Assembly: GCA_052168235.1 (NCBI GenBank)
Contig: JBQLZK010000055.1
Span: 1-52,094 of the forward strand
Direction of reading: 5' to 3'
DNA: 52,094 nucleotides
From: Thainema sp.
Lineage (GTDB): Bacteria > Cyanobacteriota > Cyanobacteriia > Phormidesmidales > Phormidesmidaceae
Part shown: piece after piece, positions 21,895 through 51,512 of the stretch
Position numbering within the stretch: the first letter of the stretch is position 1
How the letters are laid out: each line of letters starts with the position of its first letter
Notes under the pieces: generated by a model
The model's database searches: none
What the model was told of the DNA's origin: nothing
Seen by the model: the letters and a program-made list of their open reading frames with translations, nothing else
Made by a program: the position numbers and the translations under genes

Positions 21895-22017
21895 TGCGAT
21901 CGCACAACAGACCCAAATGACCATCTAGCTGACAACTTATACTATTTATTCGTGTTACTTTAATCGTTCAACACCAAAGCAACACGAATAAAGTTTGTGA
22001 CATTGGAAGTGAGATCG
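21895..22017. repeat. HIP1-bounded ~120-bp element, copy A, with 17-bp inverted repeat (21945-21961 / 21976-21992)
   Basis: Direct homolog of 44950-45073; first 67 nt differ at only 5 positions. Confidence 0.85.
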
Positions 22018-22043
22018 TTGCAACTTGTTCTTTAACCACATCC

Positions 22044-24072
22044 GTTTCAATCCCTGAGAGGGTTTGAGGGTGATCGCAACCAAAACGTTGTTCTCCCGTT
22101 CCTGGTCAAGCGATTGGTTTCAATCCCTGAGAGGGTTTGAGGGTGATCGCGACCGTAAGTCCGGCCAGAACGCTGCCGCCCGCTTTGTTCCATCGTTTCA
22201 ATCCCTGAGAGGGTTTGAGGGTGATCGCGACTGGTCGTACCTAACAAAAACTGAGCACCAGCCAACAAGCTGTTTCAATCCCTGAGAGGGTTTGAGGGTG
22301 ATCGCGACGCACCATCGAAGCTTATGGCGGTGCTGGCTCGGCGTTTCAATCCCTGAGAGGGTTTGAGGGTGATCGCGACAATGCTAGACAAAGATCGAAA
22401 GCGATCTATAATCGGGTTTCAATCCCTGAGAGGGTTTGAGGGTGATCGCGACGCCGCCGCGACCGGGCGGAACTTTTTTGGATCTCCGTTTCAATCCCCG
22501 AGAGGGTTTGAGGGTGATCGCGACACTCTCTGCAAATGCCTATCCTGGCTGCTTAATGGGTTTCAATCCCTGAGAGGGTTTGAGGGTGATCGCGACTCGC
22601 CATAACGACCAACCTTTACCCGGCGGCGAATGGAGAAGTTTCAATCCCTGAGAGGGTTTGAGGGTGATCGCGACGCGGAAATCTTTCGATGCGATCGCAA
22701 ATTAAAGTCGTTTCAATCCCTGAGAGGGTTTGAGGGTGATCGCGACCCCCGGTATGTCCTCAGCAGTGGGAACCTCTCCTGTGTTTCAATCCCTGAGAGG
22801 GTTTGAGGGTGATCGCGACGCCCGACCAATCGACACCATCAAGAGATTGAAGCATACGGTTTCAATCCCTGAGAGGGTTTGAGGGTGATCGCGACGCCCC
22901 GGTCATCGCTCAGAACAGCCTGCCAGCACTTTGTTTCAATCCCTGAGAGGGTTTGAGGGTGATCGCGACCGAATCGAAACCGCTGTTTTACCTCTCGTGA
23001 ACTGGCTGAGTTGTTTCAATCCCTGAGAGGGTTTGAGGGTGATCGCGACTCGCGACGCATCGCCAGAGGGCTTTAACACTCGTCTAAATTTGTTTCAATC
23101 CCTGAGAGGGTTTGAGGGTGATCGCGACTACCCCGCTGGATTGGATGCAGCAGCACTATTCCGTTTCAATCCCTGAGAGGGTTTGAGGGTGATCGCGACG
23201 ATTAGCTGCAAGTCCTTTGGGTCTAAGTCGGGGTGTTTCAATCCCTGAGAGGGTTTGAGGGTGATCGCGACGGAGTTGTTAAAGCTGACAGTTGTCATTT
23301 TCAACGTTTCAATCCCTGAGAGGGTTTGAGGGTGATCGCGACCAGTAAATAAGCTCAAACCCCTCAGAACGGTCGTTTGGTTTCAATCCCTGAGAGGGTT
23401 TGAGGGTGATCGCGACCGGCTGGAGCAGATCAGCAGCCAATACGACTGGCAAAGTTTCAATCCCTGAGAGGGTTTGAGGGTGATCGCGACTACCCGGCAA
23501 GCCCCTAGCAATAGACAGGCAATGGTTTCAATCCCTGAGAGGGTTTGAGGGTGATCGCGACGGCTCCACGGCAATAGTCACCATCCCGATTTACCAAGTT
23601 TCAATCCCTGAGAGGGTTTGAGGGTGATCGCGACATGACCCGTTGACTTAGCTAGTGCGATCGCATCCGTTTCAATCCCTGAGAGGGTTTGAGGGTGATC
23701 GCGACTAAGCACCTGTCTGAGCATGGCATTGAGCATGGCCTGTTTCAATCCCTGAGAGGGTTTGAGGGTGATCGCGACCGGGCCTCAAAAAGCTATCCGG
23801 GGGGATGTACTCGGTTTCAATCCCTGAGAGGGTTTGAGGGTGATCGCGACAAGAAGGATTGAGCCGTAGCAACATTATCAAAAAAATGTTTCAATCCCTG
23901 AGAGGGTTTGAGGGTGATCGCGACACCCAGCAGTCGCCAACGGAGCGACATGGCATCCAGCACGTTTCAATCCCTGAGAGGGTTTGAGGGTGATCGCGAC
24001 AATGTATCCGGCCTATGCAACGTTGGTAGTGAGGCGTTTCAATCCCTGAGAGGGTTTGAGGGTGATCGCGAC
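22044..24072 (-). CRISPR. CRISPR array: 28 repeats of 37 nt (GTCGCGATCACCCTCAAACCCTCTCAGGGATTGAAAC) and 27 spacers of 34-43 nt
   Basis: Repeats counted directly; variants at 22044 (leader-distal, ...GCAAC on +) and 22488 (CCCCGAG); ATTGAAAC 3' end and leader next to cas2 give the orientation. Confidence 0.98.
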
Positions 24073-24323
24073 GGCGGGAGGCCGTAATGCCTATTATATT
24101 TAGTTTTCAAGGTGCGAATGCGCGAATCGCTCACATTATCGTATCGAAACTGGAGAGCGATGGAAAACCACATCAGTTAAAAATCCTAAATGCCTTGTTG
24201 TGCCTACCGTTCAGCAACTGCGCGAACCTCAATCTCAGTTTCATCATCTGTATCCCTTGCCACGTCAGCCATTCAGCCTGCTCTAGTCCTAATCGCTGAT
24301 TTGAGACCACCCCATCCGCGCAA
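24073..24323 (-). promoter_or_regulatory. CRISPR leader
   Basis: Non-coding stretch between cas2 and the first repeat; TGCGCGAA at 24119 and 24219, plus an inverted CCGCGCAA at 24316. Confidence 0.75.
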
Positions 24324-24596
24324 TCAGGCAAAGAATATGGAATCATCGCGAACCGGTTCCCCACCAATCCGTTCTACCTTATTTGAACAGCACGCGCACA
24401 GAAAATAGAACCGGATACTGTCCTGCTCCGGCTTAATCATTTGGTTCAGCCGCGATCGCAACTTAGCATATTCCGTCTCCGTCACATCACATTCAAACAA
24501 ACTGAACTGCATCCACTGCCCATAGGACTTGAGCACCTTGTGAATGCGAGTGCGGCGCTTATCGTCTGAGATATCGTAAGAGACAACAATATGCAT
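24324..24596 (-). CDS. cas2: CRISPR-associated endoribonuclease Cas2
   Basis: VVSYDISDDKRR..., YGQWMQFSLFEC and DSIRFY motifs. Confidence 0.95.
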   Translation of the reverse strand: MHIVVSYDISDDKRRTRIHKVLKSYGQWMQFSLFECDVTETEYAKLRSRLNQMIKPEQDSIRFYFLCACCSNKVERIGGEPVRDDSIFFA

Positions 24597-24625
24597 AACT
24601 GACTACGACTGGCACGGTGCGATCG

Positions 24626-25627
24626 CTACTTCAAAATCAGCGGTGGATACTTCTCAATGTCCTGCATCAAATACTTCGCGAGCAGTCGAGCTTGAATCTC
24701 AAACACCTCTTGGTACGTACATTGTCGGCCCATCACGGGATGCTTGAACTTTGACTGCTTCTTCTGTTCATACAGGCGCAAAAACGTGCGACGCCCCTCA
24801 TCCGACAGTGACACCGCTCGACTCAACGGCTCGCTCTCGAAATCCTTTGGCAGCAAAGACTTGCGGTTGATCGCTGTCAACACCACTGCATCCACCACCA
24901 ATGGACGAAACTCTTCCATCAAGTCCAGTACGAGAGATGGCCTGCCATAGCGTTGCATATGGAGGTAGCCCAGATAGGGATCAAAACCAACGATGTTAAT
25001 CGCGCTTTGAATATCGTGCCGCAGAATCGCATAGCCAAAGCTCAGCAACGCATTCACCGGATCGGTTGGTGGCCGCCGCTGTCGAGTTTTGAACGTGAAA
25101 TCCGGCACGCGAATCAGCTGGTTGAAGCTACCGAAGTAAGCCGCACTGCCTGCGCCCTCCAAGCCGCGTAGTGAGTCAATCGATTGGGTCTTGTTGATCG
25201 GCGTAATGGTCTGTTCCAGCTTCGTGATCGCCGAGTGCAGATTCGCCCCCGTATCCCGCTGCTATCGCAACAAGCTATTGCGATAGTTCTTCAGCTTGCC
25301 CCGGATAAAGCCCTGTACGACATGAACCGCTTGCTCTGTTTGGCCTGCTGCCTGCCACTGAGCCGCCCGCACAAAAATATTATTGGTTAGAGGCGGTTCC
25401 AAACGCCCTAGATAGCGACCCGTTCCGGTCAGGAAACTGAGCGGGATTTTGCGCTCAAGCAGCTCCATCAATGCCGCTGGTGACACCGTAGCTCGCCCCA
25501 GCACCACCACACCATCGACCTTGATCATCGGTACATCCAGAATCGTTCGCCGATTGGAGCGGACGCGCAGGCGCTCATCGGTCTTGCCAATGAAGGCATC
25601 ATCGGTTGTTATGTAGACGGTTCCCAT
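24626..25627 (-). pseudogene. cas1: Type I-D Cas1 interrupted by one in-frame TAG at 25262-25264
   Basis: The frame reads straight through the stop (LLR*QRDTGANLHSAITKLEQ...LRGLEGAGSAAYF); NALLSFGY, GYLH and DLMEEFR are intact. Confidence 0.92.
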
Positions 25628-25629
25628 TT

Positions 25630-25732
25630 TCTTTAGTTATTAGTTCTTAATTTTGAGTTTTGAGTTATTAGTTTTGAGTTGAAAGTTTTGGGTTTTGGAT
25701 TGCTAATTCAAAACTCAAAATTCTTAACTCTT
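25630..25732. repeat. STRR-like heptamer tandem repeats forming an inverted pair (TTTTGAG / CTCAAAA)
   Basis: ttttgagttttgagttattagttttgag ... ttcaaaactcaaaa between cas4 and cas1. Confidence 0.75.
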
Positions 25733-26326
25733 CTACTCGCTTTCTCGATATCGGCTCACTTTTTGTTGTGCTTGGGGTAAACACTGCTGATATAAGCTGC
25801 AACCCCGGCAGCGTTTGCTGCAGATGGCGGGTGGCATCTGGCCGGTTTGGAATAGGGTTTGTACCGCTTCAATGGTTGCGATCGCAGTCACTCGGAGTAA
25901 CTCAGAAATCTCAACCAACTGTCGTTGATGAGACTGGGCATAGTAGAGATAGCCTTGGCCAATCGATTGTCCGGTCATGTCTTCTAGACAGAGCGCTTGC
26001 GCACAAACTTGCAGCTCGTCATTATCAAACTCGCCCCGTTTGCCCCGCTTGTATTCAACTGGATACAGGGTGCCATCAATCTCTTCAATCAGATCCGATT
26101 TGCCAATCAAGCCATAGCGATCGCTCTTGAGCCAAACCGCTCGCACTTGCCAGGTCTCGGGACGACTTTCCTGCCCAACCGTATGCACCCGGTCATGGAG
26201 GTTGGTGCCTTCAACCGTGTACTGATTATCCACAAAGCCATCGGTACAGAACATGCGCCAGCAGCGATGGGGACAGTAGGCATATTGGTTGAGGGCAGCG
26301 ATGGGGATTGGGTCGGGTATAGTCAT
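25733..26326 (-). CDS. cas4: CRISPR-associated exonuclease Cas4
   Basis: YCP Cys, D...VEYKRG RecB motif, Q..AQALCLE and C-terminal CxxCxxxxxC. Confidence 0.95.
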   Translation of the reverse strand: MTIPDPIPIAALNQYAYCPHRCWRMFCTDGFVDNQYTVEGTNLHDRVHTVGQESRPETWQVRAVWLKSDRYGLIGKSDLIEEIDGTLYPVEYKRGKRGEFDNDELQVCAQALCLEDMTGQSIGQGYLYYAQSHQRQLVEISELLRVTAIATIEAVQTLFQTGQMPPAICSKRCRGCSLYQQCLPQAQQKVSRYRESE

Positions 26327-26408
26327 GAGTTTTGAGTTTTGAATGTTGAGTTTTGAATGCAGAGTTCATGAGCTGGGAATTCTAGGTTTTTGGGTATGGG
26401 GTGTTGTT

Positions 26409-26756
26409 GTGGCTGAGAGCGTTATTCAGAGAAAAAGCTTTGAGTTTGCTTTAAAGATGATTGAGCTTTATCAAAAGCTGGAAAAGCAAAAAGAGTTTGT
26501 TCTTTCTAAGCAGTTGTTACGCAGCGGAACTAGCATAGGTGCCAATGTTGAGGAAGCAACAGCAGCCCAAAGTCGTAGAGACTTCTTATCTAAAATGTCG
26601 ATTGCCTCAAAGGAAGCACGAGAAACCAAATACTGGTTAAAACTCCTACAGGAATCAGAGTTGACCAATCTCGATCTAACATCAGAAATTAATCAAGCTG
26701 ACGAAATCATTCGCATTCTTACCGCAATTGTAAAAACCACAAAAATCACCTCTTAA
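26409..26756 (+). CDS. Four-helix-bundle protein (bAvd/S23-IVS-like)
   Basis: KQLLRSGTSIGANVEEA...DFL.K..IA.KEARET.YWL; antisense to the cas genes; flanked by heptamer repeats (26326-26400, 26752-26816). Confidence 0.85.
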   Translation: MAESVIQRKSFEFALKMIELYQKLEKQKEFVLSKQLLRSGTSIGANVEEATAAQSRRDFLSKMSIASKEARETKYWLKLLQESELTNLDLTSEINQADEIIRILTAIVKTTKITS

Positions 26757-26817
26757 CTCAAAACTCAACATTCAAAACTCTCAATTAAACTTCACACTCA
26801 AAATTCCTAACTCTTAG

Positions 26818-27744
26818 CTAAATCCTTTTGCATATCCCCATGCCCATCGTCGTCTTTCGACCCACGCCCGCATAAAGCGCAAAGTCAGCCAGCGTATTCA
26901 ACTGCTTGATCGTGCTGGCATCGACGTTACCTAGAATCTGGTACGTCACCGTGCCAACGCAGCCCATGAACTGATTGCAGGGACTCGTTTTCGCGCCCGT
27001 ATGCTGAAACTGGTCGCGCGGATCGGTAGCGACTTGGGTTTCAATATCAAATTGGCTCGGCTGAATCACGTGCAGAATCTCATCCGAAAAAGGCAGCTCA
27101 CTGTACTGGTTCCAGCGGCGCAGCAGGCTACCAAAGACACGCTCCGGAGTGGGCAGAGCCGAGTCGTATTTACCCTGTCGAAAAGCTGTCGGCGTACAAA
27201 ACTGAAGCATCAGTTTGCGAGAGTGCTTTGGGCTGACTGCGTCAACGCGCTCAGAGGCTTGCTCATAAAGCTGCTGATAGTTGCAGAAGTTGGCCCAGGG
27301 TTGCGTACTTTGGGGCGTACCTAGAATGCTGGTGATCTGCAAATCAGCGGGTCCCAAATGCCAGGGTTGATTGGGATTGAGATTGAGCCAAAGCTGACTT
27401 AAGCGACCAAATAGGCGATCATCCAGCAACGAAATGCGCCACCAGCAGGGAGTTCCAGGTGAAACCGGTTGCCGATATTGCCATCTCATCAAACTCGGAG
27501 GCTGCGGCTTGGCAGTGCGGGTAGTTTTGGGCTTAGGTAAGTGCGATCGCGATGAATGCTGTGCAAGCTGTAGGGGGCTGAGGGTAAAAGATTTGTTGCT
27601 CCGATTCGCGTGCAGTTGGTTGCCCATCTCAACATCCACGGAGCTAACCAAATTGAGAAAAAGGGCATGCAAATGTTTACCTGAGGTGAAGCCTGGAGGA
27701 ATGGGCGATTCAGGTAAAAGGTTGAGGACAAGACTATGTGGCAT
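26818..27744 (-). CDS. cas6: CRISPR-associated endoribonuclease Cas6
   Basis: MPHSLVL, HLHALF, TPTAFRQ and C-terminal YAGVGRKTTMGMG glycine loop. Confidence 0.95.
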   Translation of the reverse strand: MPHSLVLNLLPESPIPPGFTSGKHLHALFLNLVSSVDVEMGNQLHANRSNKSFTLSPLQLAQHSSRSHLPKPKTTRTAKPQPPSLMRWQYRQPVSPGTPCWWRISLLDDRLFGRLSQLWLNLNPNQPWHLGPADLQITSILGTPQSTQPWANFCNYQQLYEQASERVDAVSPKHSRKLMLQFCTPTAFRQGKYDSALPTPERVFGSLLRRWNQYSELPFSDEILHVIQPSQFDIETQVATDPRDQFQHTGAKTSPCNQFMGCVGTVTYQILGNVDASTIKQLNTLADFALYAGVGRKTTMGMGICKRI

Positions 27745-27851
27745 GGCGGTTACTGAGTTCTAAGCTTGTGGTTTTGAACGTAGGCACTAGAAAGTTTTAG
27801 CATTGTGATTAAGCTGATAATCTGAGCCGTGCAATCAAAGGAGAGGGTTGA

Positions 27852-28256
27852 ATGCAAATTGATGATTATGGACAGGCGATCGCCCTCAAGAACAAATTGG
27901 AGGCGGCATTACCGTTTCGAATTCGACCGGGTCAGCAATTGCTGAAAGCGATGAAGGATGAACCCATTTCGGCAACGACCTGGCTGGACGTAGACTCAGT
28001 CATGTATGCCGGGGATGAAGGCGGCATTTTGCTAAATTTGATTCCCAGTGGTGATAGTTCAAAATCGGTGTATTCCACATCGTTGACCCATGTCGTATTT
28101 GATCCAAGACATGAGTTGGCGGCAGAGGTGCAGGCATATCAGCGGGAGAGAACGCGACGATTAATGATGCAGGATCGAGGTGGCTTTGCGGCAGAGTTGT
28201 TAGCGCAGCGACCTTCGCAAAGACGTAAGACGAAGCGCAAAGGGTTTGGCAAATAG
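27852..28256 (+). CDS. Hypothetical protein (antisense insert in the cas operon)
   Basis: AGGAG RBS; 134-aa ORF ending in KGFGK; no recognised family. Confidence 0.65.
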   Translation: MQIDDYGQAIALKNKLEAALPFRIRPGQQLLKAMKDEPISATTWLDVDSVMYAGDEGGILLNLIPSGDSSKSVYSTSLTHVVFDPRHELAAEVQAYQRERTRRLMMQDRGGFAAELLAQRPSQRRKTKRKGFGK

Positions 28257-28281
28257 AAAGAGAACAGGAGATTCAAGGGTA

Positions 28282-28545
28282 TCAACGTCCGTGCCAGTCT
28301 TCTTCCGCAATATGGTTATAACTATGCAAGTAAACAACAGGCGTCATAGGAACTTCTGGTAGAGGTTCTGGATGTTCATCATTGGAACCGTGAGCCCCGT
28401 AGTACCAGGTTTTGTTGATGTTGAGCTGCATAGAAAGCGGCTTGACTTCCTGAATATCGTTGTAACCACTTTCGTAGCCACGCACGACAACAGGTGTATC
28501 TGGCGGAAATTGAGAGAGCGCTTCGATGAGTTCTTGGACAGTCAT
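28282..28545 (-). CDS. Hypothetical protein
   Basis: Starts 2 nt after the csc1 stop; MTVQELIEALSQFPPDTPVVV.GYE.G looks like a real small mobile-element protein. Confidence 0.65.
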   Translation of the reverse strand: MTVQELIEALSQFPPDTPVVVRGYESGYNDIQEVKPLSMQLNINKTWYYGAHGSNDEHPEPLPEVPMTPVVYLHSYNHIAEEDWHGR

Positions 28546-28547
28546 GG

Positions 28548-29261
28548 CTAATTGCTGAATCGGTACTCCATATTTACGGGCAGTTTTAGGGGCTCTCTCA
28601 ATCCTTCGAATGAGTAGAACTCGCCGACCATTCGTACGTTGCGGATAAGGCTAACGGGCGGCATGTTGATGGTGTCATAGCTCAAGACCTGGTTCGTGAA
28701 CATGACATCTAGTGGATTGATCGGATACGGAAAGGTAAACTCCCTGGCCGAATTCTGTCTGGGAGTTGATAGCTCCTTCACTGCCACTTCTGCCTTGCTC
28801 ATCCATTTCCCAAGCCGGATCCACCGGGGAAAGGCTAGGGACTGCTGGGAGATAGCAAAAAACTCGAATTGGCTTTCAGGGGCAATTTCCTTTGCCCGAC
28901 CAAAGCTGGGGATGTTCTTCTGGGTTTTCTGCATCTCAACGTGGTAGCGGTTGTCCGCATACTTCCAGGTGTTGAGTACAGCGGCATGACGCACAGTCCT
29001 GGCGGGAGTGACGTAGATACCCTGCTGATTCAACGGGGTAAGATGGGCCTCGTACATCGGCACTTGCTCAGGGCAAAAGTAGCGGTAGCTGTGGTCTTCA
29101 CCTACAGTCGTGGCATATTTCTCGCTGTCCACTAGCCCCAGGGCATAGCAGAGGGCGTAGTTATGCAGTACAGGCTCAGTTTCGTAGAGTCGCCCAATTT
29201 CCCGCGTGGCGTAGTAGAGGCTGTCGTGCAGTTCTAAGGTGCAGCGATAGACATGAGGCAT
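28548..29261 (-). CDS. csc1: Type I-D Cas5 (Csc1)
   Basis: LHDSLYYATRE.G, LHNYALCYALG and WIRLGKWMSK motifs; position after csc2. Confidence 0.92.
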   Translation of the reverse strand: MPHVYRCTLELHDSLYYATREIGRLYETEPVLHNYALCYALGLVDSEKYATTVGEDHSYRYFCPEQVPMYEAHLTPLNQQGIYVTPARTVRHAAVLNTWKYADNRYHVEMQKTQKNIPSFGRAKEIAPESQFEFFAISQQSLAFPRWIRLGKWMSKAEVAVKELSTPRQNSAREFTFPYPINPLDVMFTNQVLSYDTINMPPVSLIRNVRMVGEFYSFEGLREPLKLPVNMEYRFSN

Positions 29262-29263
29262 GG

Positions 29264-30274
29264 CTATGACCTCGCGCTAGCGGCTTTTTTCTTACCAATG
29301 TGTTTCTCAGCATAGGCTTTAGCCTCGTCATCAGCCTGTTTCAGAATGGATTTGATCCCCTCTTCACTAGCGGTTAAAGACTTCACCTCAGTCAAAAGTG
29401 ATTGGAAGTCATCACCAATGAAATCAGTATGCACAATGAATTCCTCATTCATCAGGGTTTGAATCGCAGTCTTAGCTGCTTCGGCAACCTCATCTTCATC
29501 TAGAGGATCGGGAGCTTTGAGCGTACCGTCAGCTTTCATCTGGTCGTAGATGGCTTGGGTCCAGCGCAGATTGCTGACGATTTCGCCATCAGCAAACACC
29601 ACGCCGATTAGCTCATTCCGAACCCGGCCTGTGCGGGTAGTTTGAGCACTGTAATGGCGAGTTCTCAAAATGTTATTGAAGACATAGAGGAAACTGGCTT
29701 CCGTAGGGTCTTTCAGGGTAACGATGCTGGGGAAGAAGACCTGGGGCCGAATGTGATCTTGCTGGTTAATACGGCTAGTCACTTCACCCGGCTTGGAACC
29801 TTTCTCCCCTTTAGACGCCATGGTTCCATTTTCAAAAGGTGCATTCAGGGTAAACGTTTCGTGGGACTCGTCGAAGGCAGTGATAGAAAAAGCTGTATCA
29901 ACAACGACTTTGGATTTTTCAGAGCCAGAATCACCGATCGCAAACCCGTAGATGATGCAATCGGGATTGTCCATACCAAACTCAACGTTGTACTCGCATT
30001 CTTCAGGTTTCACGAAACCGTAGGTGCGAAGAAGTTCTCGCCCAACTAGCCGCTCTGGCGTGGACTGCTTGCGCTTAAACATCGATAAGCGGCTGATAGT
30101 ATTTTTATCTTCAACACCAGCACGAACTCGCGCCTTATTCAGTTCGCCATCGGTCTGAAAAAGTGGATAAGACTCAGTAACGCGCACCGTGAGGAAGTGG
30201 GCATATTTTCCCATCGGCTTGTACTGAAATTCTGGGTGAAAGAACTTGTCGTCTAAAGTTTTGAGGAATTTCAT
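29264..30274 (-). CDS. csc2: Type I-D Cas7 (Csc2)
   Basis: FKRKQSTPERLVGRELLR, DCIIYGFAIGD and AQTTRTG motifs. Confidence 0.93.
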   Translation of the reverse strand: MKFLKTLDDKFFHPEFQYKPMGKYAHFLTVRVTESYPLFQTDGELNKARVRAGVEDKNTISRLSMFKRKQSTPERLVGRELLRTYGFVKPEECEYNVEFGMDNPDCIIYGFAIGDSGSEKSKVVVDTAFSITAFDESHETFTLNAPFENGTMASKGEKGSKPGEVTSRINQQDHIRPQVFFPSIVTLKDPTEASFLYVFNNILRTRHYSAQTTRTGRVRNELIGVVFADGEIVSNLRWTQAIYDQMKADGTLKAPDPLDEDEVAEAAKTAIQTLMNEEFIVHTDFIGDDFQSLLTEVKSLTASEEGIKSILKQADDEAKAYAEKHIGKKKAASARS

Positions 30275-30307
30275 GATTGCTAATCCTTGGTAGTAGAGTG
30301 AATATTT

Positions 30308-30913
30308 TCAGGCTAAAAGTGACTGAACTAAAATGCGTAGCAAGGTTTCTACATCTTCAGGAACACGGTAGCTTTCAAGGCCCTGATGAATGTGTTTAGT
30401 TTCTCGATTAAGCTGGCTAAACTGCCATAATGATCCTGTCGTAATTGCGCCAATCAAATGCTTCTGGGGTGATTCCATCCACTGATCTAAAGCAATCATT
30501 TCTACAGCAAGTTGTTTTATGCCGTTGGTCAGGTCTTCTTTTTTGGCTTCAATGACAATCATCTGCCTGTCAGTTCTTAATAAATAATCAAGAGAACCTT
30601 GAAGCTGTTCTGAGACCTTGAGCGGATATTCAATCCTGAGCTGGGCTTGAGTATAATGAACGACTTCAGTGACTACGCGAGAAATTAAGATTTCTCGACG
30701 GGCAATTTCAGTTGTCAGATTCACAAAAGGTAGAATTTCCTCAATGCGATCGCGCAACTCCTGAAGTCGTCCTAACTCGCCACTATAGACGGGCAGATTG
30801 AGCTTTTCACGGGACAAAGAGTATCCGAAATCGGCAACGATATCATCAGCTTCAGCGTTGAGATCAAAAAACTTACTGAAAGTGTAAGACTCATTGGGAT
30901 TCAGAATCTTCAT
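30308..30913 (-). CDS. PD-(D/E)XK / HsdR-N-like nuclease-fold protein
   Basis: G.LDYLL...IVIEAKKED...G..QL...GAITTG.LWQF; overlaps the cas10d stop by 4 nt. Confidence 0.65.
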   Translation of the reverse strand: MKILNPNESYTFSKFFDLNAEADDIVADFGYSLSREKLNLPVYSGELGRLQELRDRIEEILPFVNLTTEIARREILISRVVTEVVHYTQAQLRIEYPLKVSEQLQGSLDYLLRTDRQMIVIEAKKEDLTNGIKQLAVEMIALDQWMESPQKHLIGAITTGSLWQFSQLNRETKHIHQGLESYRVPEDVETLLRILVQSLLA

Positions 30914-31446
30914 TCTTCTTCTCCAGATTTAGATTTTGGTGATTCATTCTTCTTAGCTTTTTGATTTTCTTTGTCTTGCTCCAGACGATAGAGAAATACG
31001 CAGCTATCACGAATTAGATTGAGCTGCTTTCCAGCTAAGCGGGCGCGATCTCCGGCAAATGCTTTCTGAAATACTTCATGTACAAAGTATTTTGAGAACG
31101 CCAAAATTGCCTGTCGCTCCTCATCACGTTGTTTACCATTAAATACCCAACGTCCCTCGGCATTCGAGCTATGTACTCGATCCATTAATCTTTCTATAGC
31201 TGCAGCCACATTTGCCACTGTTGAGTTTTCTTGAAAGTCTGGATTACTTTCTTTGACTTCAGCAAGCAATGTATCTCCATCTTTCATGCTCGGATCTATT
31301 TCAAGAACCACTTTTGCAGCAGTATCAATAGGTTTGAGGATTGCATTTGCTTTGGGTGTGTATTTATCTTTTGCTCTGTAGAACTTTCGAAAAAGAAAAG
31401 TCAAGTTGACTGGATGGTTTAATTGCGATTTTTCTTCGTCTGTCAC
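30910..31446 (-). CDS. cas11d: Cas11d small subunit from an internal in-frame start within cas10d
   Basis: GGAG, 9 nt, then in-frame GTG just before TDEEKSQLNHPVNLT...FYRA; internal cas11d translation is established for type I-D. Confidence 0.65.
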   Translation of the reverse strand: MTDEEKSQLNHPVNLTFLFRKFYRAKDKYTPKANAILKPIDTAAKVVLEIDPSMKDGDTLLAEVKESNPDFQENSTVANVAAAIERLMDRVHSSNAEGRWVFNGKQRDEERQAILAFSKYFVHEVFQKAFAGDRARLAGKQLNLIRDSCVFLYRLEQDKENQKAKKNESPKSKSGEEE

Positions 31447-34482: not shown

Positions 34483-34533
34483 AGCGGATCTCCTGTAGAT
34501 CAAAAACTGTTTTGCGGCGGTTGACTGCGGTTG

Positions 34534-35094: not shown

Positions 35095-35100
35095 AATGCT

Positions 35101-35457
35101 CTAACTCTCACTGAAAGGGCGAATTCGTACTCGGTTTAACTCAGCGGTAACGATGGCACCCGCCGTTAGTTCATCGCCATAAAGCTCCAGCACCCGCAGA
35201 CAGACGGCTCCTTGTTGCCGACCGCTGAGATTGACTAATCGCACAATGCCGCAGTGGGGAGTCCCTTTGACAATGGCTAATTCACCAAAATCCTTGTCGA
35301 GCGTAATGAGAATGCGGCCATCCCGGTAAGCCATCGCTAGGATCTCTTCATCGCCGGGGTCTGTGTCCCATTCGCCAGACCAAATGACATCGTGACTGGC
35401 GGCCTCAAGGGCAGATTTGACCCCACCCCACACGCAGGTATCCATAAGGATTTTCAC
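35101..35457 (-). CDS. DUF5615 PIN-like toxin
   Basis: MKILMDTC, DEEIL..A..DGRILITLDKDFGEL PIN acidic motifs. Confidence 0.85.
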   Translation of the reverse strand: MKILMDTCVWGGVKSALEAASHDVIWSGEWDTDPGDEEILAMAYRDGRILITLDKDFGELAIVKGTPHCGIVRLVNLSGRQQGAVCLRVLELYGDELTAGAIVTAELNRVRIRPFSES

Positions 35458-35705
35458 TGCTGAGTCTCCACAAGCAGTGGCTCTACCCGCTCATGGGCAA
35501 CCAGGCGATAGGCGTAGGCAAAGCAGGCCAAAACATCCTCCCGCTCTAACCAGGGGTAGCCTTCCAGCAGAGTCTCGATGGTGTCGCCTGCCGCCAACAT
35601 GCTGAGGACATGTTCAACCGCGAGGCGACGCCCTCGAATAATGGGCTTGCCATTGAAAATCTGGGGATTAGTCGTAATGCGGTTCAAAAGTTCCTGGTCG
35701 TTCAT
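35454..35705 (-). CDS. DUF433 antitoxin
   Basis: RIT.NP.I..GKPIIRG.R..V..VL..LA.G....LLE.YP.L..EDV; 4-nt overlap with the toxin gene. Confidence 0.88.
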   Translation of the reverse strand: MNDQELLNRITTNPQIFNGKPIIRGRRLAVEHVLSMLAAGDTIETLLEGYPWLEREDVLACFAYAYRLVAHERVEPLLVETQQ

Positions 35706-35735
35706 GGTTTGCTCCTCCTAGGGTGGAAGTATTGT

Positions 35736-35818
35736 TCGCGATCGGTCAGAATGCCGGACTCGATCATCTGGTGGTATTGCCCCACCATGAATTTCTTTCG
35801 CAGAATTTGGACAGTCAT
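35736..35818 (-). pseudogene. Truncated 5' copy of uma2
   Basis: 83-bp near-identical direct repeat of 35012-35094 (MTVQILRKKFMVGQYHQMIESGILTDR). Confidence 0.85.
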
Positions 35819-35860
35819 ATTCAGCTCTACTCGCTGTGTATCAATCGTTAATAGAAAATG

Positions 35861-36409
35861 TCACCATTTAGATGGATTTTGGGGATGAAGCTGGTCATGC
35901 TTCCATTTTTGAGGATTCTGCTCAATATATGTGCGTAATTGGGCAAGAGATCCTTCACTGCGAATAATGTGTTCGTAATAATTGCGCTGCCAAAATTTAA
36001 CTCCAGTCAAATCTCGCGCTGCGTTAATTAGTTTGGTTGATTGATATTTGAAATAAGCAACAATTTGGCCTAATGTCGGCTTCTTAGAATTTTGCTTCGA
36101 CACTAAATCTTTGGATTCTTGTTTAATGAGAAAACTCTCTTCAGAAATCACAATAATGCCGTGAAAGTGATTGGGCATAATCACTGCTGCATCGAGGGTT
36201 ACAAATTGAAAGTGAAGCGGAATTTGGTGCCAAACCTGTTCGACAATGACCCCATACTGGCTGAGAGAGAGCGCGCCATTTACAACCTCGCCAAGCAGAC
36301 ATTCCCTTCCCTGGGTGCAGATCGTGACAAAATAAACACCCGCTTGGCTGTAGTCGTAATCCTTCAAGCGGATCGATCTCCGATGGTGAATTGCCGGATC
36401 ATATTTCAT
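35861..36409 (-). mobile_element. REP-associated tyrosine transposase (RAYT, Y1 HUH)
   Basis: RRSIRL..YDY...G.YFVTICT, MPNHFHGII (HUH) and WQRNYYEHIIR...YI..NP motifs. Confidence 0.9.
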
Positions 36410-36593
36410 CGCCGTAGGGGCGAGGTTTCCTCGCCCAATGCAGGATTTCCAAACCCAACCAACGTTTCATATTTCATCGCCGTAGGGGCGAGGTCTCCTC
36501 GCCCAATGTAGGATTTCCAAACAGTTGGCATGTTTCTACATTTTGCCCTGGGCGGGGAAACCCCGCCCCTACCCGTAATCAACCCGCCCCTAC
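36400..36593. repeat. GTAG-type REP cluster upstream of the RAYT gene
   Basis: GTAGGGGCGAGGTTTCCTCGCCC (36414), GTAGGGGCGAGGTCTCCTCGCCC (36482), inverted GGGCGGGGAAACCCCGCCCCTAC (36550) and a partial copy at 36583. Confidence 0.88.
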
Positions 36594-36599
36594 CCACGA

Positions 36600-38765
36600 T
36601 TACACAACCCATATCTCACCTCCTTCGCGCCTGAATCGGTGGGCAAGGGTGTCAATCAGCAACGCTGACTGACCAAATGCCACTGAGTAGGGCGCGTTGG
36701 CGTCATGGATACTGTTCGCATCGCTAATGGGATAAATCTGAAAGTGCATGGGTAACTGTAACCGCAACCGCACCTCTCGCACTGGCTTGCGCAGCACGTA
36801 ACAAACTAGAGCTTGCTTTTTCAATCGCTGGTTAATCGCACTGGCCCAAGGATTATCCGGTTGCCAGACCTGTAGGCCGAGTAACACCTGTACTTTGTAG
36901 GCATCGGCAATGGGCTGGAGATCTCCGGGGTAGGTAAACTTCCAGTTCAAGCGCTCTTCCCGATCGCTCCGCAGTTTCATAAAGCCCAGGCAATGCTTGA
37001 AGCGGCCTTTGGCAATGGGCTGCCCGGTGCGCTTTGCCGTTTCGTCGAGCATGTCGAGAAAAGCCGTTTTGCTCCACATCTCGATCTCTAGGTTGCTGAG
37101 CACACCGGGAAGGTCGTAGGTTTTGAAACGATCGCGCTCATTAGCTTCAGTTAAGTCATACAGACCGCACTGTAGTGGACTAGACCCGCGAAAGCTTCTA
37201 GCGTCTTCAGCAATGGGATTACCTGTTTTTTGTCCCGACAGAATTTGCCATTCCTCAGCCCAACCTTTGACCCGTCCAAACACTTGACCAAATCGAGCCT
37301 CAAAAACCTGCTCGCAAGCCTGTTGAAACTTCTGGACAGAACCTTCGTATTGAGACTTCACTCCAGGGTGAGAGAGCTGTCGTCCCAAAGAAACCGATTG
37401 AACGGCACCCCAGCGTTTGTAATAGCCCTCAAAGTTATTAATCTGACGATATTTTTCACGGATGAGATTTTGGAAGTGGATGCGATCGCACACTTCCCCA
37501 TTCGTCAAAACGGCTTCATCCCCTGCGAACAGCCGCTCCACAAAGAAGTTCGGCACCAACGCATAGGCTCTAAAGCCATCAAACGAACCGCCTTGAATAT
37601 TTTTGTCATGTCGGCCCAATCGGCCCAATCGCTGGATGAAGTTGCCTGCATCCGAGGACTCAAAAATTAGAAAGTTGATCTTGAAATCCACCCCCACATC
37701 AATAGTGCTGGTACCAACCACCAGATCAGCCGCCAGGGATTCAGCTTTTTCCTGCCCTCCAGACAGACCGGTATTTTCCCGAACCGTAAGGCCATGCTGG
37801 GCAAAGCATTCTCGAAAAGCAGGCGTCAGACGCTTCACCGCTGCAATGGAATTGAGGATAATAGCTCCCTTGCTGCCGGGGTGTTCCAGAAATTGGTTGA
37901 GAATGGATTCCTGATTCTCCTTTAGCCAGGTTTCAGAGGCTTTGGACGTTGGTTCCATTGGCACAAAGGTCAGGTCAATGGATCGCGCCACCTGTCGCCA
38001 ATGCTCTGCCTGTAAAGCCTCTGCTTCAGCCTGAGTCTCGGGAAATTGGTACTTGCCTTCATCAGTGGGATTAATGATTCGACAGCGCAACCCCGCCTTG
38101 TCCAAACGCTTCAACAGCGAATCGCTAGGAGTAGCTGATAGAAACAAAAACTTCTTTCGCCGATTGGTTGCTTGAATCAATAGCATCGTATTCAAGACGC
38201 TGGCAACCTGGGGCGCAGCAAAAACGTGAAATTCGTCAAAGATGAACAGATCGAAGTCCTTGTCGATGCGATTCCAGAGCTTGTCAGGAGTATCCTTACC
38301 CGTCAGATAAGCACCCCGATGGAGGTAATGAAAAATGTCGGGGTTGGTGATGAGGACTTCTGATTGCCCCGCGCGGGATGCGATCGCGCTGCCCTTCCGC
38401 AAACCCTCATTCTCCGAGTAAATTTCAAGCTCAGGCCCACTTAAACGATTTACCCTGGGCTCATTCGGCGGCTGAAAGTCATCAACGTAGCTTTGAACCT
38501 GGTTCTCTTGATCAGCGGCTAGAGCATTGGTGGGATAAAGGGCGACTGCATGACAATCTCCCTGCAAAATATCTAGATAAGCGGCAAGGCTCTTGCCATC
38601 TCCTGTCATCGCAGTATTGAAGATCACGTCAATACTGGAATCTCGCAAAGCCTTCCAGGTTTCAAGCTGATGCCACGAAAGTTTCCAGCCTTCAGGCAAG
38701 GAAAGCGCTGCTGGAACTTCTGAGGCTGGACAGGAATAAACAGGTTTTAGTTGGATTGAATACAT
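36600..38765 (-). CDS. cas3: Type I-D helicase Cas3' (no HD domain)
   Basis: TAMTGDGKS, DEFH, SATP and QRLGRLGRH SF2 motifs. Confidence 0.94.
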   Translation of the reverse strand: MYSIQLKPVYSCPASEVPAALSLPEGWKLSWHQLETWKALRDSSIDVIFNTAMTGDGKSLAAYLDILQGDCHAVALYPTNALAADQENQVQSYVDDFQPPNEPRVNRLSGPELEIYSENEGLRKGSAIASRAGQSEVLITNPDIFHYLHRGAYLTGKDTPDKLWNRIDKDFDLFIFDEFHVFAAPQVASVLNTMLLIQATNRRKKFLFLSATPSDSLLKRLDKAGLRCRIINPTDEGKYQFPETQAEAEALQAEHWRQVARSIDLTFVPMEPTSKASETWLKENQESILNQFLEHPGSKGAIILNSIAAVKRLTPAFRECFAQHGLTVRENTGLSGGQEKAESLAADLVVGTSTIDVGVDFKINFLIFESSDAGNFIQRLGRLGRHDKNIQGGSFDGFRAYALVPNFFVERLFAGDEAVLTNGEVCDRIHFQNLIREKYRQINNFEGYYKRWGAVQSVSLGRQLSHPGVKSQYEGSVQKFQQACEQVFEARFGQVFGRVKGWAEEWQILSGQKTGNPIAEDARSFRGSSPLQCGLYDLTEANERDRFKTYDLPGVLSNLEIEMWSKTAFLDMLDETAKRTGQPIAKGRFKHCLGFMKLRSDREERLNWKFTYPGDLQPIADAYKVQVLLGLQVWQPDNPWASAINQRLKKQALVCYVLRKPVREVRLRLQLPMHFQIYPISDANSIHDANAPYSVAFGQSALLIDTLAHRFRREGGEIWVV

Positions 38766-39043: not shown

Positions 39044-39919
39044 ATGCCTCGTAAACGGTCTTCCTTTAATCTCTCCATTGCCGATCACGAAAAAGCTCGG
39101 CTGGAGCAGCTTGCACTGGAATTTGGTCAAACTTGGGGAGATAATCCCAATGTTTCAAAACTTATAAAAGCGATCGCAAGAGGCCAGTTGCGGATTGCGG
39201 TTAACAACAATTGGAGTCCAGAGCGAATCAATACACTGGTTCGTATCTTTGGCTGGCTAAAAGATACTGACCAAACCAGTGATGCCCTAGAAGTCGCAAA
39301 CCTACTGCTAGAGCGCAGCGAACTCAATATTCCGCTCCGCCATGAACTTCAAGCATGGGTCGATCGACCCAGCGCACCTTGGCGAATAGATCTGGATTGC
39401 TGTATTCGCCAGCAACGCCCCTTCCGAATTGCCTATCAGGATGCGGCTGAACGTCTGTGGAACTTCACTATTCGTCACGCCATGATTCAGCGTCATGAAG
39501 AGCGGCAATACCTTGACTGCTGGTGCGATGAAACCGAGGGCAATCAAGATGTTGAAGCCCTCCAGCATAACTGGTCACTCCGCCTCGATCGCATTCCTGA
39601 AGAAGCCGTGATTGCTCGTGCAGAAGGTCACTGGCAACCCGAACTCAACTATATCGAAGTTGAATTCCATCTGCTCAATGGCTTGGCGTTGGGCTACCGC
39701 TCCAAAACGAAGGCCGACATCATCAACGACTGGATGCCTGAGCAAAACATCCGGCGTGTTGTTCGACGAATTTACAACACCTTCTGGTTCTTCCGCGAAG
39801 TGCGCCGCTATGGAGCCGATTGCGTATTGATCGGGCCAGAGGATGTGTGCGAGCGTTACAAACAAGACTTAATTAAAAATATTACCCAATATGGGTTCTC
39901 AGTCCTTCAGGTAAATTAA
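39044..39919 (+). CDS. WYL-domain transcriptional regulator of the type I-D locus
   Basis: N-terminal ribbon-helix-helix-like segment, YLDCWC...NWSLRLDRI WYL motif; divergent from cas3. Confidence 0.88.
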   Translation: MPRKRSSFNLSIADHEKARLEQLALEFGQTWGDNPNVSKLIKAIARGQLRIAVNNNWSPERINTLVRIFGWLKDTDQTSDALEVANLLLERSELNIPLRHELQAWVDRPSAPWRIDLDCCIRQQRPFRIAYQDAAERLWNFTIRHAMIQRHEERQYLDCWCDETEGNQDVEALQHNWSLRLDRIPEEAVIARAEGHWQPELNYIEVEFHLLNGLALGYRSKTKADIINDWMPEQNIRRVVRRIYNTFWFFREVRRYGADCVLIGPEDVCERYKQDLIKNITQYGFSVLQVN

Positions 39920-39956
39920 ACCTTCAAGCTGCTCCTGCATTTGTATAGCCTACATG

Positions 39957-40242
39957 GCCATCCAATAGTAATGGAGCAATTTGGCCAGTAGACACAAAAC
40001 ACAATCATGAAAGCTAGTGCAGACAAGCATTTCCAGACTTCACTCTTTCTTATGCGCTGTCTCCTTAAAGAGTAATCTTTGATGATCCTCTACTGTTCGA
40101 TCTTGAACCATTAATGGAACAGTTCATTCCCCCGAGCCTCTATTTGTAAGGCTTTCAGGATATTCTCTAATAACAACTCAAATACTGTAAATGGGACAGT
40201 TATTCTTCTGCTAGCCAAATTGCTCTATTACTATTGGATGGC
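39957..40242. mobile_element. MITE-like non-coding element with 36-bp terminal inverted repeats
   Basis: gccatccaatagtaatggagcaatttggccagtaga (39957-39992) matches the reverse complement of 40207-40242 with 3 mismatches. Confidence 0.7.
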
Positions 40243-42442: not shown

Positions 42443-42610
42443 TGATAGCTTTCCTATCACTCAGCAGAACTGGCTTTATGTAGGACAGCAAATCTGCGAT
42501 CGCGCCGATGTTGCTTTGATGTAGTAGGAACAGAGCAAGAAAGCCGATATCGATCAGGATTTGCCCAACGATTAGGATTTTCAGCCAGCGGGGGATTTGG
42601 CCTATGTATA

Positions 42611-43290
42611 GACACTGTTGGCGAACTAGGATGGCAGCAATCAAGCAGGTTCTAGCGCCTTAAATCGAGACACTCTCGTTTTGGCCAATGGTACGTTCTG
42701 GAACCAGTTGAAGAGCCGATCAATATTAATGGCAGCGCCGATAGCCATGTTCTGTAAGTGCGTCTTAGCCAGACCCATATAGCGATAACGTCGTAGCCCG
42801 CAGCTGGTAACGGCTTGAGCAATCGTACTCTCGATGCCAGCACGGCGACGATAACGCTCCTAGCCTTCGGTTGCCGTTTGTACCAATCGGGCTTTTTCTA
42901 ACGCCTCGTATTCGGCTTGTGGCAGCAGATGGAGTGTACGGCCAGCGGTTGGCTTAGCTTTGGTACAAAGCGAGCGAACCGGGCAATCAGCACAGTCTTG
43001 AGTGCCAAATCTAGTCAGGATATAGGGTTTACCGGAATCTTGCGGGCAGGTTACCTGTTCGTTTTCCCAATCAATCTCGAAGTGGTTCAAGTTGAAGGCC
43101 CCTTCAGTGCGCGTTTGCCAACTGGTATCAAGGCGTGCTGGCCCAACCATCTCAATGCCTTGACTCTGTGCATTCACTAGCAGGAACGCATTAACATAGG
43201 CTGTATTGGCAAAGTGCTCCTTGGGCCGAAGATGCTTGCCGATTAGCGCCTGGTGAATGTGAACACGACTCCTGCATCTGTTAGCTGTTG
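42611..43290 (-). pseudogene. IS1182-family transposase 3' remnant
   Basis: F.IDWE...VTCP, CxxCPVRSLCT, then after a stop YRRRAGIESTI.Q.V...GLRR.RY.GLAKTHLQ; frame ends at 42641. Confidence 0.8.
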
Positions 43291-43478
43291 CAATGCAGGC
43301 GATCCAACCTTACTCTGCAAGGGGTTGAGCGATACCAGCAAAATGACTGGACTAGAAATGGACTGATTTTTCTAAATGGCCACAAATTTGAAACGAGAAA
43401 TCAGGAGTTTCAAATTTGTGCCAGGTTTTCGGATTTGGATGGTTTAGTCCACCAGTTGTCTCTAGAGTAGTAAAACTG

Positions 43479-44379
43479 GATTGTGCCTCAGCAAAGTGTG
43501 GGATAGGTCACCAAATCTTGCCACGTCCAAGGATGCGCTGTCAGCCCTGCCCGTTGTGCAGCAGTATTCTTGAACCGAGAGTGTTGCCAAATCCAGTTGA
43601 AGTAACTGACGACCAGCCGCAAGGTGACAGCGCTCTGCTGCCAGACTTTGCCGAATTTATTCTGTCGCCGATGCCACCGTCCGGTCTGTTGACGCAGGAT
43701 TCCATTGCTCCGTTCTAACCGCTGCGTTAGAGCTTTGCTGACTTCATGGGTAACCTTGTCGGGTAACTGGCGAGCATATCCGTCCCAACCGTCTGTTTGC
43801 CATCGGTGGCAGGCGGTTTTCCCTTCCGTGTTGACCACTAATGCCTGGGCTAACTCATCGGTGTGTTTTCCGATGCGACCACTGAGCAATAAACCACTGT
43901 CCTTCGCTAGACTTAAGGCCACCCAGCAGTCCCCTATCGTTAACTCGCTGGGTTCACAGTGCTTCTGCTTTTTTTCACAAAAGACCATAGCTCATCGGCA
44001 TTGATCACCTCAGTGTCCACTGCCTGTACTTCCCCATTGTGAATCAGTTGCCCTTTCTGACTGGCGGCTCGAATGACACTGACACAGGTGTTGTAAGCTA
44101 CCCCAGCGATGCGTGAGAGCCCCCGCAGACTGCTCCCTTCGCTATGGGATTGGAGAATTGTATCAACCGTTGCCGGGGAAATCTGACGGCGATAGTAGAG
44201 GGTATCAAAGGTCTCGCTAAAGGTTTGTTGGCAGTGGGGGCAACGGTAACGTTGGGAACCTTTACTGGTTTTGCCGTGCTTGTGGGTCTTCGGATGACCG
44301 CATAGAGGACATTCCATCGGGGGCAGTAGAATTCAACTTCTCTAGGTTTAGCAAACCCACACTTTATTGATGCACAACC
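43479..44379 (-). mobile_element. IS1-family insertion sequence (insA 43940-44317, insB 43488-43988, -1 frameshift)
   Basis: CPLCG..KHGK..GSQRYRCPHC zinc finger plus HTH; DELWSFV and TDGWDGY DDE motifs; A7G slippery site at 43969-43975; TIRs GATTGTGCCTCAGCAAAGTGTGGG / GGTTGTGCATCAATAAAGTGTGGG. Confidence 0.92.
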
Positions 44380-44949
44380 GTTTATCCTTCGAGATTCACT
44401 CGATGCTAGAAGACGAAAGGGTATTTTCGTCACCTAGACAGCGCTATTGGATGGTCTCATTCGGTATTGCCAGCTGCGGTATGGATGGTGCCCAAAATGC
44501 TGATACCGTACTTAAGAAGAGCGAAGTGGCGATTTTACGCTTGAGAGGTGGCAGACGGTAACTCGGCGATGGCGTTCAAAACCAAAAGCTTTTGCAAGTT
44601 CTATGGGGCTTTGGGTGCCGAGAGGGGGAAGAGATGCAGCAGAGGATGGGTAAGATTGGCCGTGATAGATGACTCGCATAGCGGGGGCTGCTTGGGGAGA
44701 TCAAATGGTTTCCTGTCCGTTTCCTATGCTTCACGGCCAGCCTGAATATTCTCTGATCCCGTTCTGAAGATTATTTAAGGGGTCGATGAGAAACCTGAGT
44801 GCTGATTCAGCACAAAATCAGGAATGGTGAACGCCGCTAGCAGTTGCGATCGCACTTTTATGAGAGCGGCAAACCTGCGATCGCACCTCCACCCATCACC
44901 AAGCTCACCTCAGCCTAATCTTCGTGATTGGGCTTTTTAGTTGGGAAGG

Positions 44950-45073
44950 TGCGATCGCACAACAGGCCCAAATGACTATCTAGCCGACAATTTATACCAT
45001 TTATTCGTGTTACTTTTCTCTGAGTCATTAAAGTAACACGAATAAAATTGTGACGCTAAAAGTGCGATCGCAC
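44950..45073. repeat. HIP1-bounded ~120-bp element, copy B, with perfect 17-bp inverted repeat (45000-45016 / 45030-45046)
   Basis: TTTATTCGTGTTACTTT-N13-AAAGTAACACGAATAAA between two GTGCGATCGCAC sites. Confidence 0.85.
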
Positions 45074-51497: not shown

Positions 51498-51512
51498 CGT
51501 GAATACTAAAGT

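Follow-up and report, generated by a model that had tools for sequence, protein, structure and literature searches.

A palindrome conserved among Leptolyngbya-like cyanobacteria at the core of a repeat bracketing a type I-D CRISPR-Cas locus in Thainema sp.

A 52,094-nt contig of Thainema sp. (JBQLZK010000055.1, assembly GCA_052168235.1), which in its entirety is the window analysed here, carries a type I-D CRISPR-Cas locus lying between two copies of a palindrome-containing repeat of ~125 bp, and this arrangement raises the question of whether the repeat moves the defence block or stands beside it for other reasons. A preliminary description of the sequence had noticed the repeat, whose limits coincide with sites of the motif HIP1 (GCGATCGC), and had suggested a constrained structure or dimeric binding site, a recombination site at a cassette boundary, a mini-element targeting HIP1 or a promoter-like hairpin of single-stranded DNA (ssDNA). 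As set out below, the palindrome in the repeat belongs to a family that recurs in related genomes, often directly before an uncharacterised gene, here called geneX. We tentatively favour the reading that the palindrome is a cis-element which a protein recognises and which belongs to a plasmid-type backbone, and that the window holds orphan copies of it, set inside a genome-specific, HIP1-bounded repeat, so that the bracketing of the CRISPR-Cas locus would be incidental; we rate its chances at somewhat short of even.

The first copy of the repeat, copy A (21895-22017, plus strand), begins with a HIP1 site (21896-21903) and continues with a 5′ part (21903-21944), two arms (21945-21961 and 21976-21992) enclosing a loop (21962-21975), and a tail that runs to a degenerate HIP1, GAGATCGT, two mismatches from the motif. 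Copy B (44950-45073, plus strand) has the same composition, with HIP1 at 44951-44958, the 5′ part, arms at 45000-45016 and 45030-45046, a loop at 45017-45029, and a tail that ends in an intact HIP1 (45064-45071). The two are homologous and in direct orientation, with five mismatches over the initial 67 nt, 91% identity within a block of 70 nt, roughly 82% identity over the ~126 nt overall, and a longest identical run of 18 nt. Each contains the 17-nt arm TTTATTCGTGTTACTTT and its complement, which pair without mismatch in copy B and with one mismatch in copy A (A.C on the plus strand, G.T on the minus strand), and the loops of 14 nt (copy A) and 13 nt (copy B) cannot be aligned. This likeness is not due to chance, since the 17-mer arm has six matches in the window at up to three mismatches where 0.09 are expected, and the 33-nt 5′ part has two where 0.00 are expected. 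Copy A is separated by 26 nt from the first repeat-like unit (22044) of a CRISPR array of 28 repeats (22044-24072, minus strand), while copy B lies upstream of recD2 (45151-47370, plus strand), whose start is 77 nt past the copy and 104 nt past its palindrome. The array is probably read from the cas2 side, as suggested by the ATTGAAAC end of its repeat in minus-strand form and by the minus-strand cas genes, and copy A would then lie beyond the trailer end, 26 nt past the variant repeat there. All that the preliminary description had reported of the two copies, namely their homology, arms and unrelated loops, their HIP1 limits, and their position on both sides of the whole type I-D locus of about 23 kb, is borne out by the alignment and the site positions. 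To this we add a third, partial copy, copy C (51455-51498, plus strand), which comprises the right arm (two mismatches), the tail and a HIP1 site (51488-51495), lacks the left arm, and aligns with copy B starting in the middle of the loop.

What part of this repeat is old was addressed by a single scan of a species-representative genome collection with the pattern ATTCGTGTYRC-N(8-36)-GYRACACGAAT, which returned 77 stretches; the source genome, whose own copies fit the pattern and would have been among these stretches, was not part of the scanned collection. The family as defined here consists of 43 loci (numbered with the prefix L), 37 of which have cyanobacterial titles, while six entitled ‘uncultured bacterium’ were added for their common consensus and context. 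They come from 28 assemblies of Leptolyngbya-like cyanobacteria, among them Phormidesmis, Stenomitos, Pantanalinema, Elainellaceae, Leptolyngbyaceae and others, and contain 48 copies in total; carrier strains include cf. Phormidesmis sp. LEGE 11477, Stenomitos frigidus ULC18 and Leptolyngbya sp. Cla-17. The consensus reaches past the search pattern and reads T-ATTCGTGTTAC-TTTT, a variable stretch of 8-12 nt, and AAAA-GTAACACGAAT-A. In 47 of the 48 copies the length is 40-45 nt, where the pattern allowed 30-58 nt and the 32 non-family matches from other phyla span 30-58 nt, and the 11-nt core arms are likewise 18-22 nt apart in 47 copies. The stem covaries: the outer pair 5-53 is formed in 36 of the 48 copies by four pair types and the pair 4-54 in 28, and none of 500 column shuffles reaches the observed score. 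The loops, by contrast, are hypervariable and differ even where two copies are alike in other respects, as in L003/L064, in L022/L053 and in the window's A and B. The proposal that conserved arms around a free loop reflect selection on a structure or on a dimeric binding site thus gains support from the number and spread of the copies, their fixed length, their unrelated loops and the covariation of the outer stem. Furthermore, a covariance model applied to 614,973 nt of the loci found only two degenerate copies against 48 intact ones, so that copies standing by themselves do not look like decaying relics; in the window, its only matches are copies A and B. Neither the element nor the window has a close counterpart among the plasmids of PLSDB (no match and no close relative, respectively), and a full-text search of the literature for either arm gave only unrelated matches and a topical search nothing relevant. 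The family is apparently undescribed and, within the group of palindromic cis-elements that occur dispersed, seems to represent a new variant. In the loci outside the window no CRISPR array was found near the palindromes, and the periodic repeats detected there are iteron-like.

The palindrome is the sole part that the window copies have in common with the other loci, which lack the 50-nt 5′ part. The 33-nt 5′ part was found in none of the 76 loci searched, and HIP1 lies within 80 nt, on either side, of two of 47 family copies and on both sides of none, so that the suggestion of a mini-element that targets HIP1 gains no support. The 125-bp HIP1-bounded unit is therefore specific to this genome, with only its core ancient. 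HIP1 by itself is unremarkable in this window, because there are 54 sites in 52 kb where 0.88 are expected, about one per kb. Still, on either side the homology between copies A and B breaks off no more than a few bases from HIP1, which marks the limits of the local repeat and not those of the element. Homology limited in this way would fit short-patch recombination, and a preprint has put forward that HIP1 acts in a Chi-like manner in recombination (10.1101/2024.09.10.611283; see also PMC13756078 on HIP1 in cyanobacteria). The 125-bp unit may accordingly have been copied through gene conversion or short-patch recombination with HIP1 as the anchor, in which case the bracketing of the 23-kb block would be a by-product of where the copies landed. 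As direct repeats that are imperfect and share so short an identical run, A and B would be expected to cause at most rare deletion. A comparable extended duplication is seen in the draft genome cf. Phormidesmis LEGE 11477, where ~800 nt are duplicated at 89% identity (L022 9945-10731 and L053 932-1) and the palindrome lies 56 nt from one end of the homology, which parallels the extended copies of the window.

GeneX, which exists in a short form of 117 aa and a long form of ~240 aa and contains the invariant block ER.PAGG(T/S)AS ... CKYARLR.G.G..L.NGKKS.Y, was found by tblastn in 17 loci. For 16 loci, the best open reading frame (ORF) with a start codon 2-9 nt beyond the end of the palindrome corresponds to geneX or to a remnant of it, and in the seventeenth geneX locus, L044, the covariance model recovers a degenerate palindrome directly upstream. 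This position is kept although the identities between geneX proteins fall to 35%. The gene upstream of the pair varies (two ParB families, a Rep-like gene termed comp6, an integrase, kinases), whereas the pair of palindrome and geneX is constant. Thus, parA, parB and the palindrome follow each other in L016, L020, L045, L049, L054, L071 and L075, with two ParB families represented, and the palindrome is near parAB in L017, L021, L023 and L076; many copies, including those of the window, have no parAB nearby. The ~650-aa Rep/primase-like comp6, which has a weak primase match (E 0.004), precedes the pair in L032, L036, L043 and L044, and an integrase or a kinase does so in single loci. Tandem Repeats Finder detects iteron-like repeats upstream of comp6 in L032 (7054-7627) and L044 (4729-5098), with periods of 25, 31 and 56 nt and units such as GCCTATCGGTTTGGCGTAT, and these repeats are probably a plasmid origin; two further regions, L043 1-203 (upstream of comp6) and L035 16179-16506, were flagged by a k-mer periodicity screen alone. 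ParA/ParB, relaxase and DUF3854 Rep-like genes also lie near palindromes, and the title of L054 is that of an unlocalized plasmid scaffold. The home position of the element is 2-9 nt before the start of geneX, which follows directly on parA-parB or comes after an iteron-like array with the ~650-aa Rep/primase-like gene, a setting typical of a plasmid-type maintenance backbone. L070 retains the palindrome together with a 20-aa remnant of geneX, and orphan palindromes can therefore arise by loss of geneX.

On the favoured reading, both arms are predicted to be recognised by a sequence-specific protein, the first candidate being the product of geneX, and the element would control geneX and further sites, either as a duplex operator or as a hairpin. 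The copies in the window would then be orphan sites without a nearby geneX. A comparable arrangement is known from the KorB/OB and KorA/OA sites of IncP plasmids, which lie next to the partition genes: there, too, palindromes are repeated, some at backbone promoters beside parA/parB and others far from promoters. The element differs in that its half-sites are 18-22 nt apart and not contiguous, that its stem covaries, and that it follows two ParB families. The last point also bears on a comparison with parS, the palindromic centromere beside parAB to which the adjacent ParB binds, since the palindrome stands directly after parB in seven loci, but one and the same palindrome is common to both families. 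An autoregulatory operator would overlap the promoter or start of its gene at a fixed spacing; the palindrome ends 2-9 nt before the geneX ATG in 16-17 loci, and no strand-biased -10 element accompanies it.

Several observations weigh against this reading. Of 50 palindromes, 31 are orphans without an adjoining geneX, and their neighbours are as diverse as relaxase, XisH/XisI, zeta toxin, Uma2, BREX BrxB, DUF3854 Rep-like, NACHT and caspase genes, insertion sequence (IS) elements and metabolic genes. Some palindromes lie between convergent genes (L002, L013, L076, and L036 at 1723), where an operator makes little sense, and others at module junctions in related DNA. The covariation of the outer stem favours a folded structure over a pure duplex operator, although subfamily-specific half-sites could mimic it. 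The association itself is biased, because the loci were chosen via the palindrome, and a geneX paralogue in L049 (14509-14841) has no palindrome. In the window, no homologue of geneX, ParA, ParB, comp3 or comp6 was found at E < 0.01, so that the binder would have to be encoded outside it, and scans with the sigma-70 consensus found no promoter in or beside the window copies. A -10-like hexamer occurs in the loop of 8 of 16 copies on the sense and 9 of 16 on the antisense strand relative to geneX; a -10 box as a general feature of the loop was rejected on this ground, and TATAAT itself is found only in L055 and L073. Finally, geneX has no recognisable DNA-binding fold: searches against Pfam, NCBIfam and PHROG gave no family and only coiled-coil noise, and a Foldseek search of its structural model against the PDB returned nothing below E 0.2.

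The geneX family is small, with 99 representatives at E <=0.001 among 1.84 billion proteins; Synechococcus sp. PCC 7335 has a homologue, and all named homologues are ‘hypothetical protein’. A confident AF2 model (L043 2856-3206, pLDDT 87.7) predicts a helix, three strands and a long helix. The weak Foldseek matches (E 0.2-1) are mostly GGQ-domain release or rescue factors, namely RF1, RF2, ArfB, ICT1 and PrfH, and constitute a non-significant lead; the PAGG(T/S)AS part of the invariant geneX block is a loop. A sequence profile search of the PDB matched coiled coils only, and an ESM Atlas lead to DUF6788 was dropped after Pfam scans did not confirm it. The only hint that the geneX domain may work on DNA is a C-terminal Dam-type DNA methyltransferase domain in 3 of 39 distant homologues. 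When the long form was compared with PLSDB by tblastn, 76 records matched from query residue 81 onward, which shows that the C-terminal domain is common on cyanobacterial plasmids; the N-domain was not found there, since the matches begin at residue 81.

Alternatively, the element might act in RNA, either as a transcript-end or stabilising hairpin, which for copy A would lie at the trailer end of the pre-crRNA, or in the 5′ untranslated region as a control of geneX translation. Indeed, the window copies fold strongly, copy B with -41.8 kcal/mol (z -6.7) on one strand and -46.3 kcal/mol (z -6.5) on the other and copy A with -35.4 kcal/mol on the minus strand (z -3.7). The one mismatch of copy A is a G.U pair on the minus strand, the presumed sense strand of the array, and in the geneX-linked copies all four core mismatches are G.U on the sense strand. 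Many copies stand directly after stop codons or between convergent genes, and those before geneX end 2-9 nt from the ATG with no Shine-Dalgarno motif visible in between. Over the whole stem, by contrast, G.U and A.C mismatches are about equal (16 and 14), with no strand preference. The stem is ~70% A+T and no U-tract (T-run) follows it, unlike the G+C-rich stem and U-tract of an intrinsic terminator, and the consensus scan for such terminators did not call the element. A search of the window against Rfam gave no family match, and the arm sequence itself, beyond its pairing, is kept across genera. A role at the RNA level is unlikely in our judgement. The earlier idea of an ssDNA promoter-like hairpin is not supported: Frpo-type promoters need a stem long enough to hold the -35 and -10 boxes as duplex, and on inspection the 17-21-bp stems cannot accommodate such a pair.

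A hairpin that forms alike from both strands could also serve as a signal in plasmid ssDNA, recognised by a plasmid primase or replication protein in the manner of the priming sites ssiA and ssiB of RSF1010. The covariation is consistent with this, as are five copies directly after Rep/primase-like genes (comp6 in L032, L036, L043 and L044; the DUF3854 gene in L029). Yet four of these five are also geneX-linked, so that the association with Rep/primase genes is confounded, and there is no replication gene in the window; we consider such a signal very improbable.

This leads back to the question of whether the palindromes are crossover sites, served by a site-specific enzyme encoded in trans or acting as a portable homology of 40 bp, at which modules are shuffled, the CRISPR-Cas block being one of them. 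The clearest case is L043, where a palindrome-bracketed segment of ~2.25 kb contains two genes with a palindrome between them, while the corresponding position in L036 has one palindrome followed by the same 150-nt flank; in both L036 and L043, a second palindrome follows geneX, which thus has palindromes on both sides. In Stenomitos, two closely related geneX sequences, 89.6% over 702 nt, have ParB of different families joined to them in L049 and L075, and a 92-nt indel that distinguishes L020 from L045 and L054 lies 14-16 nt from the palindrome. In 667,067 nt no clear half site was seen besides copy C, which is cut in the middle of the loop. This evidence remains anecdotal, with one clear insertion, and any conserved intergenic element ends blocks of homology. 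The overlap of a tyrosine recombinase is 6-8 bp, a distance that the loop had already been noted to exceed, in agreement with the arm spacing of 18-22 nt, and since A and B differ in their loops, a crossover within a central spacer would be harder. The statement that the window encodes no recombinase stands in so far as no tyrosine or serine site-specific recombinase is found among the 39 ORFs scanned, but a RAYT-like Y1 transposase, an IS1-like transposase and a DDE fragment are present within the block; in the other loci, no site-specific recombinase is linked to the palindrome, and among the 145 flanking ORFs scanned only two (in L055 and L058) are of the integrase family. Nor is the 23-kb block set apart from its surroundings by GC content or by HIP1 density, which is ~1 per kb inside and outside (23 sites in 21895-45073, 27 in the preceding 21.9 kb). 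We regard recombination junctions of this kind as unlikely, and nothing in the data speaks for the more specific claim that the palindrome moves the CRISPR-Cas block. In a further variant, cyanobacterial plasmids and islands would shuffle modules by a hairpin-based system akin to that of attC or pdif sites, with the palindrome as the place of both recognition and crossover, geneX or a partner as the specificity factor, the CRISPR-Cas block as cargo and copy C as a hybrid left by an aberrant event. Like those sites, the palindromes are imperfectly conserved hairpins between modules and directly upstream of the next ORF, and one palindrome-bracketed insertion was seen. Integron attC sites, though, have RYYYAAC ... 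GTTRRRY cores and extrahelical bases, whereas the consensus here contains no GTTRRRY/RYYYAAC cores, its stems are perfect without extrahelical bases, and the window has no integrase. The dif site consists of two 11-bp arms around a 6-8-bp spacer, as opposed to 11-nt core arms 18-22 nt apart, and no IntI- or Xer-like gene is linked to the palindromes. This variant is less plausible still than recombination junctions in general. Taken as a whole, the earlier interpretation of the repeat is thus only partly supported, with support for the constrained structure or dimeric site and none for the HIP1-targeting element and ssDNA promoter.

As a last alternative, the palindrome might be a selfish, non-autonomous hairpin repeat like a REP/REPIN or a MITE, spread in trans by a transposase and without a role for the host. 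REPINs are described as extragenic inverted doublets with conserved arms and a variable spacer that form hairpins (Bertels and Rainey, 2011, PMC3116915), and the palindrome resembles them in each of these respects. Up to eight exact-pattern copies occur in one draft genome, that of cf. Phormidesmis LEGE 11477, intact copies far outnumber degenerate ones, and a RAYT-like gene is present in the window (35861-36409, minus strand; NCBIfam REP_Tyr_transpos at E 3.7e-16, below its cut-off). This ORF, though, is flanked not by the palindrome but by two 56-nt repeats (36399-36522, minus strand) that form GC-rich hairpins of the type GGGCGAGG-TYT-CCTCGCCC, and Y1_Tnp is found at E 1e-5 in none of the 145 flanking ORFs. 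REP/REPIN elements come in tens to hundreds of copies per genome; in the DNA covered here the copy number is low (2.5 copies in the 52 kb of the window and about one per 20-kb locus). The palindrome further differs in the conservation of its sequence across genera and in its fixed site before one gene family, kept over the deep divergence of geneX. A MITE would have its terminal inverted repeats in common with a full-length IS; here, single arms outside palindromes number only three in 667,067 nt, and none flanks a transposase. A selfish origin is thus improbable in our view. The 56-nt hairpin repeats occur nowhere else in the window, and within the cas operon the RAYT-like ORF has the Uma2/DUF5615 pair on one side and cas3 on the other.

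The remaining content of the window can be described briefly. The type I-D cas block (24324-38765, minus strand) comprises cas2, cas1 (two ORFs), cas4, cas6, csc1, csc2, cas10d/csc3, Uma2/DUF5615, the RAYT-like ORF and cas3, and the segment between copies A and B also holds an M28 peptidase gene and the DDE fragment. cas1 is split into ORFs at 24626-25162 and 25262-25627. In the region 25627-26790, A+T-rich direct and inverted repeats of the type TTGAGTTTTGAG flank cas4 and an opposite-strand ORF resembling a 23S-rRNA intervening sequence (26343-26756). The 5′ end of the Uma2-family gene is duplicated over 84 nt at 94% identity (35012-35095 and 35736-35819, 724 nt apart), and the duplicate is probably a gene fragment left by rearrangement. 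A 291-aa ORF (39044-39919), which has a homologue near a palindrome in L069, is directly followed by a MITE-like unit (39957-40242) with 36-nt inverted arms (92%) that are 214 nt apart. The nearest gene to the left of copy B is the IS1-like transposase (43488-44317, minus strand, two ORFs), and a plus-strand hairpin (44912-44934) that resembles a terminator and has a T-run ends 15 nt before copy B; something in the unannotated stretch 44434-44912 may be transcribed toward this copy. Copy C adjoins a 62-aa ORF (51513-51701, minus strand) that is an N-terminal fragment of topoisomerase I (Toprim; topA_bact E 1.2e-8), truncated about 45 nt from the copy, of which L045 has a homologue at 119-262. 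To the left of the block, a 638-nt inverted repeat (4056-4693 and 14535-15172, 93%) corresponds to two isochorismatase-family paralogues and is accompanied by a 145-nt inverted repeat (4790-4934 and 12326-12470). Both flank ~10 kb with a gene of 2234 aa that combines kinase, AAA, GAF, PAS and histidine-kinase domains and with a LuxR-type response regulator, and this segment may be invertible or duplicated. A plasmid origin of the window is unproven. Its recD2 product is ~70% identical to RecD2 of many cyanobacterial genera, some of them on Mb-size contigs, and the genes common to the window and the palindrome loci are recD2 (L030 and L028), a carboxylate-reductase (CAR)-like gene (L032), the Toprim fragment (L045) and the 291-aa ORF (L069).

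The repeat is ordinary in size, but its core is a sequence-conserved palindrome common to several filamentous cyanobacterial genera and linked there with geneX, an uncharacterised neighbour of genes for plasmid replication and partition. The HIP1-limited tract of homology in Thainema sp. is a natural example that bears on the proposed Chi-like role of HIP1. Should they prove to be recombination junctions, the palindromes would account for the movement of modules for defence and cargo, type I-D CRISPR-Cas among them, from one of these replicons to another. If instead geneX and the palindrome work as a pair in regulation or DNA handling, this would add a backbone function to the poorly understood plasmids of cyanobacteria, and the pair could also provide a portable control element for use in strains in which engineering is difficult.

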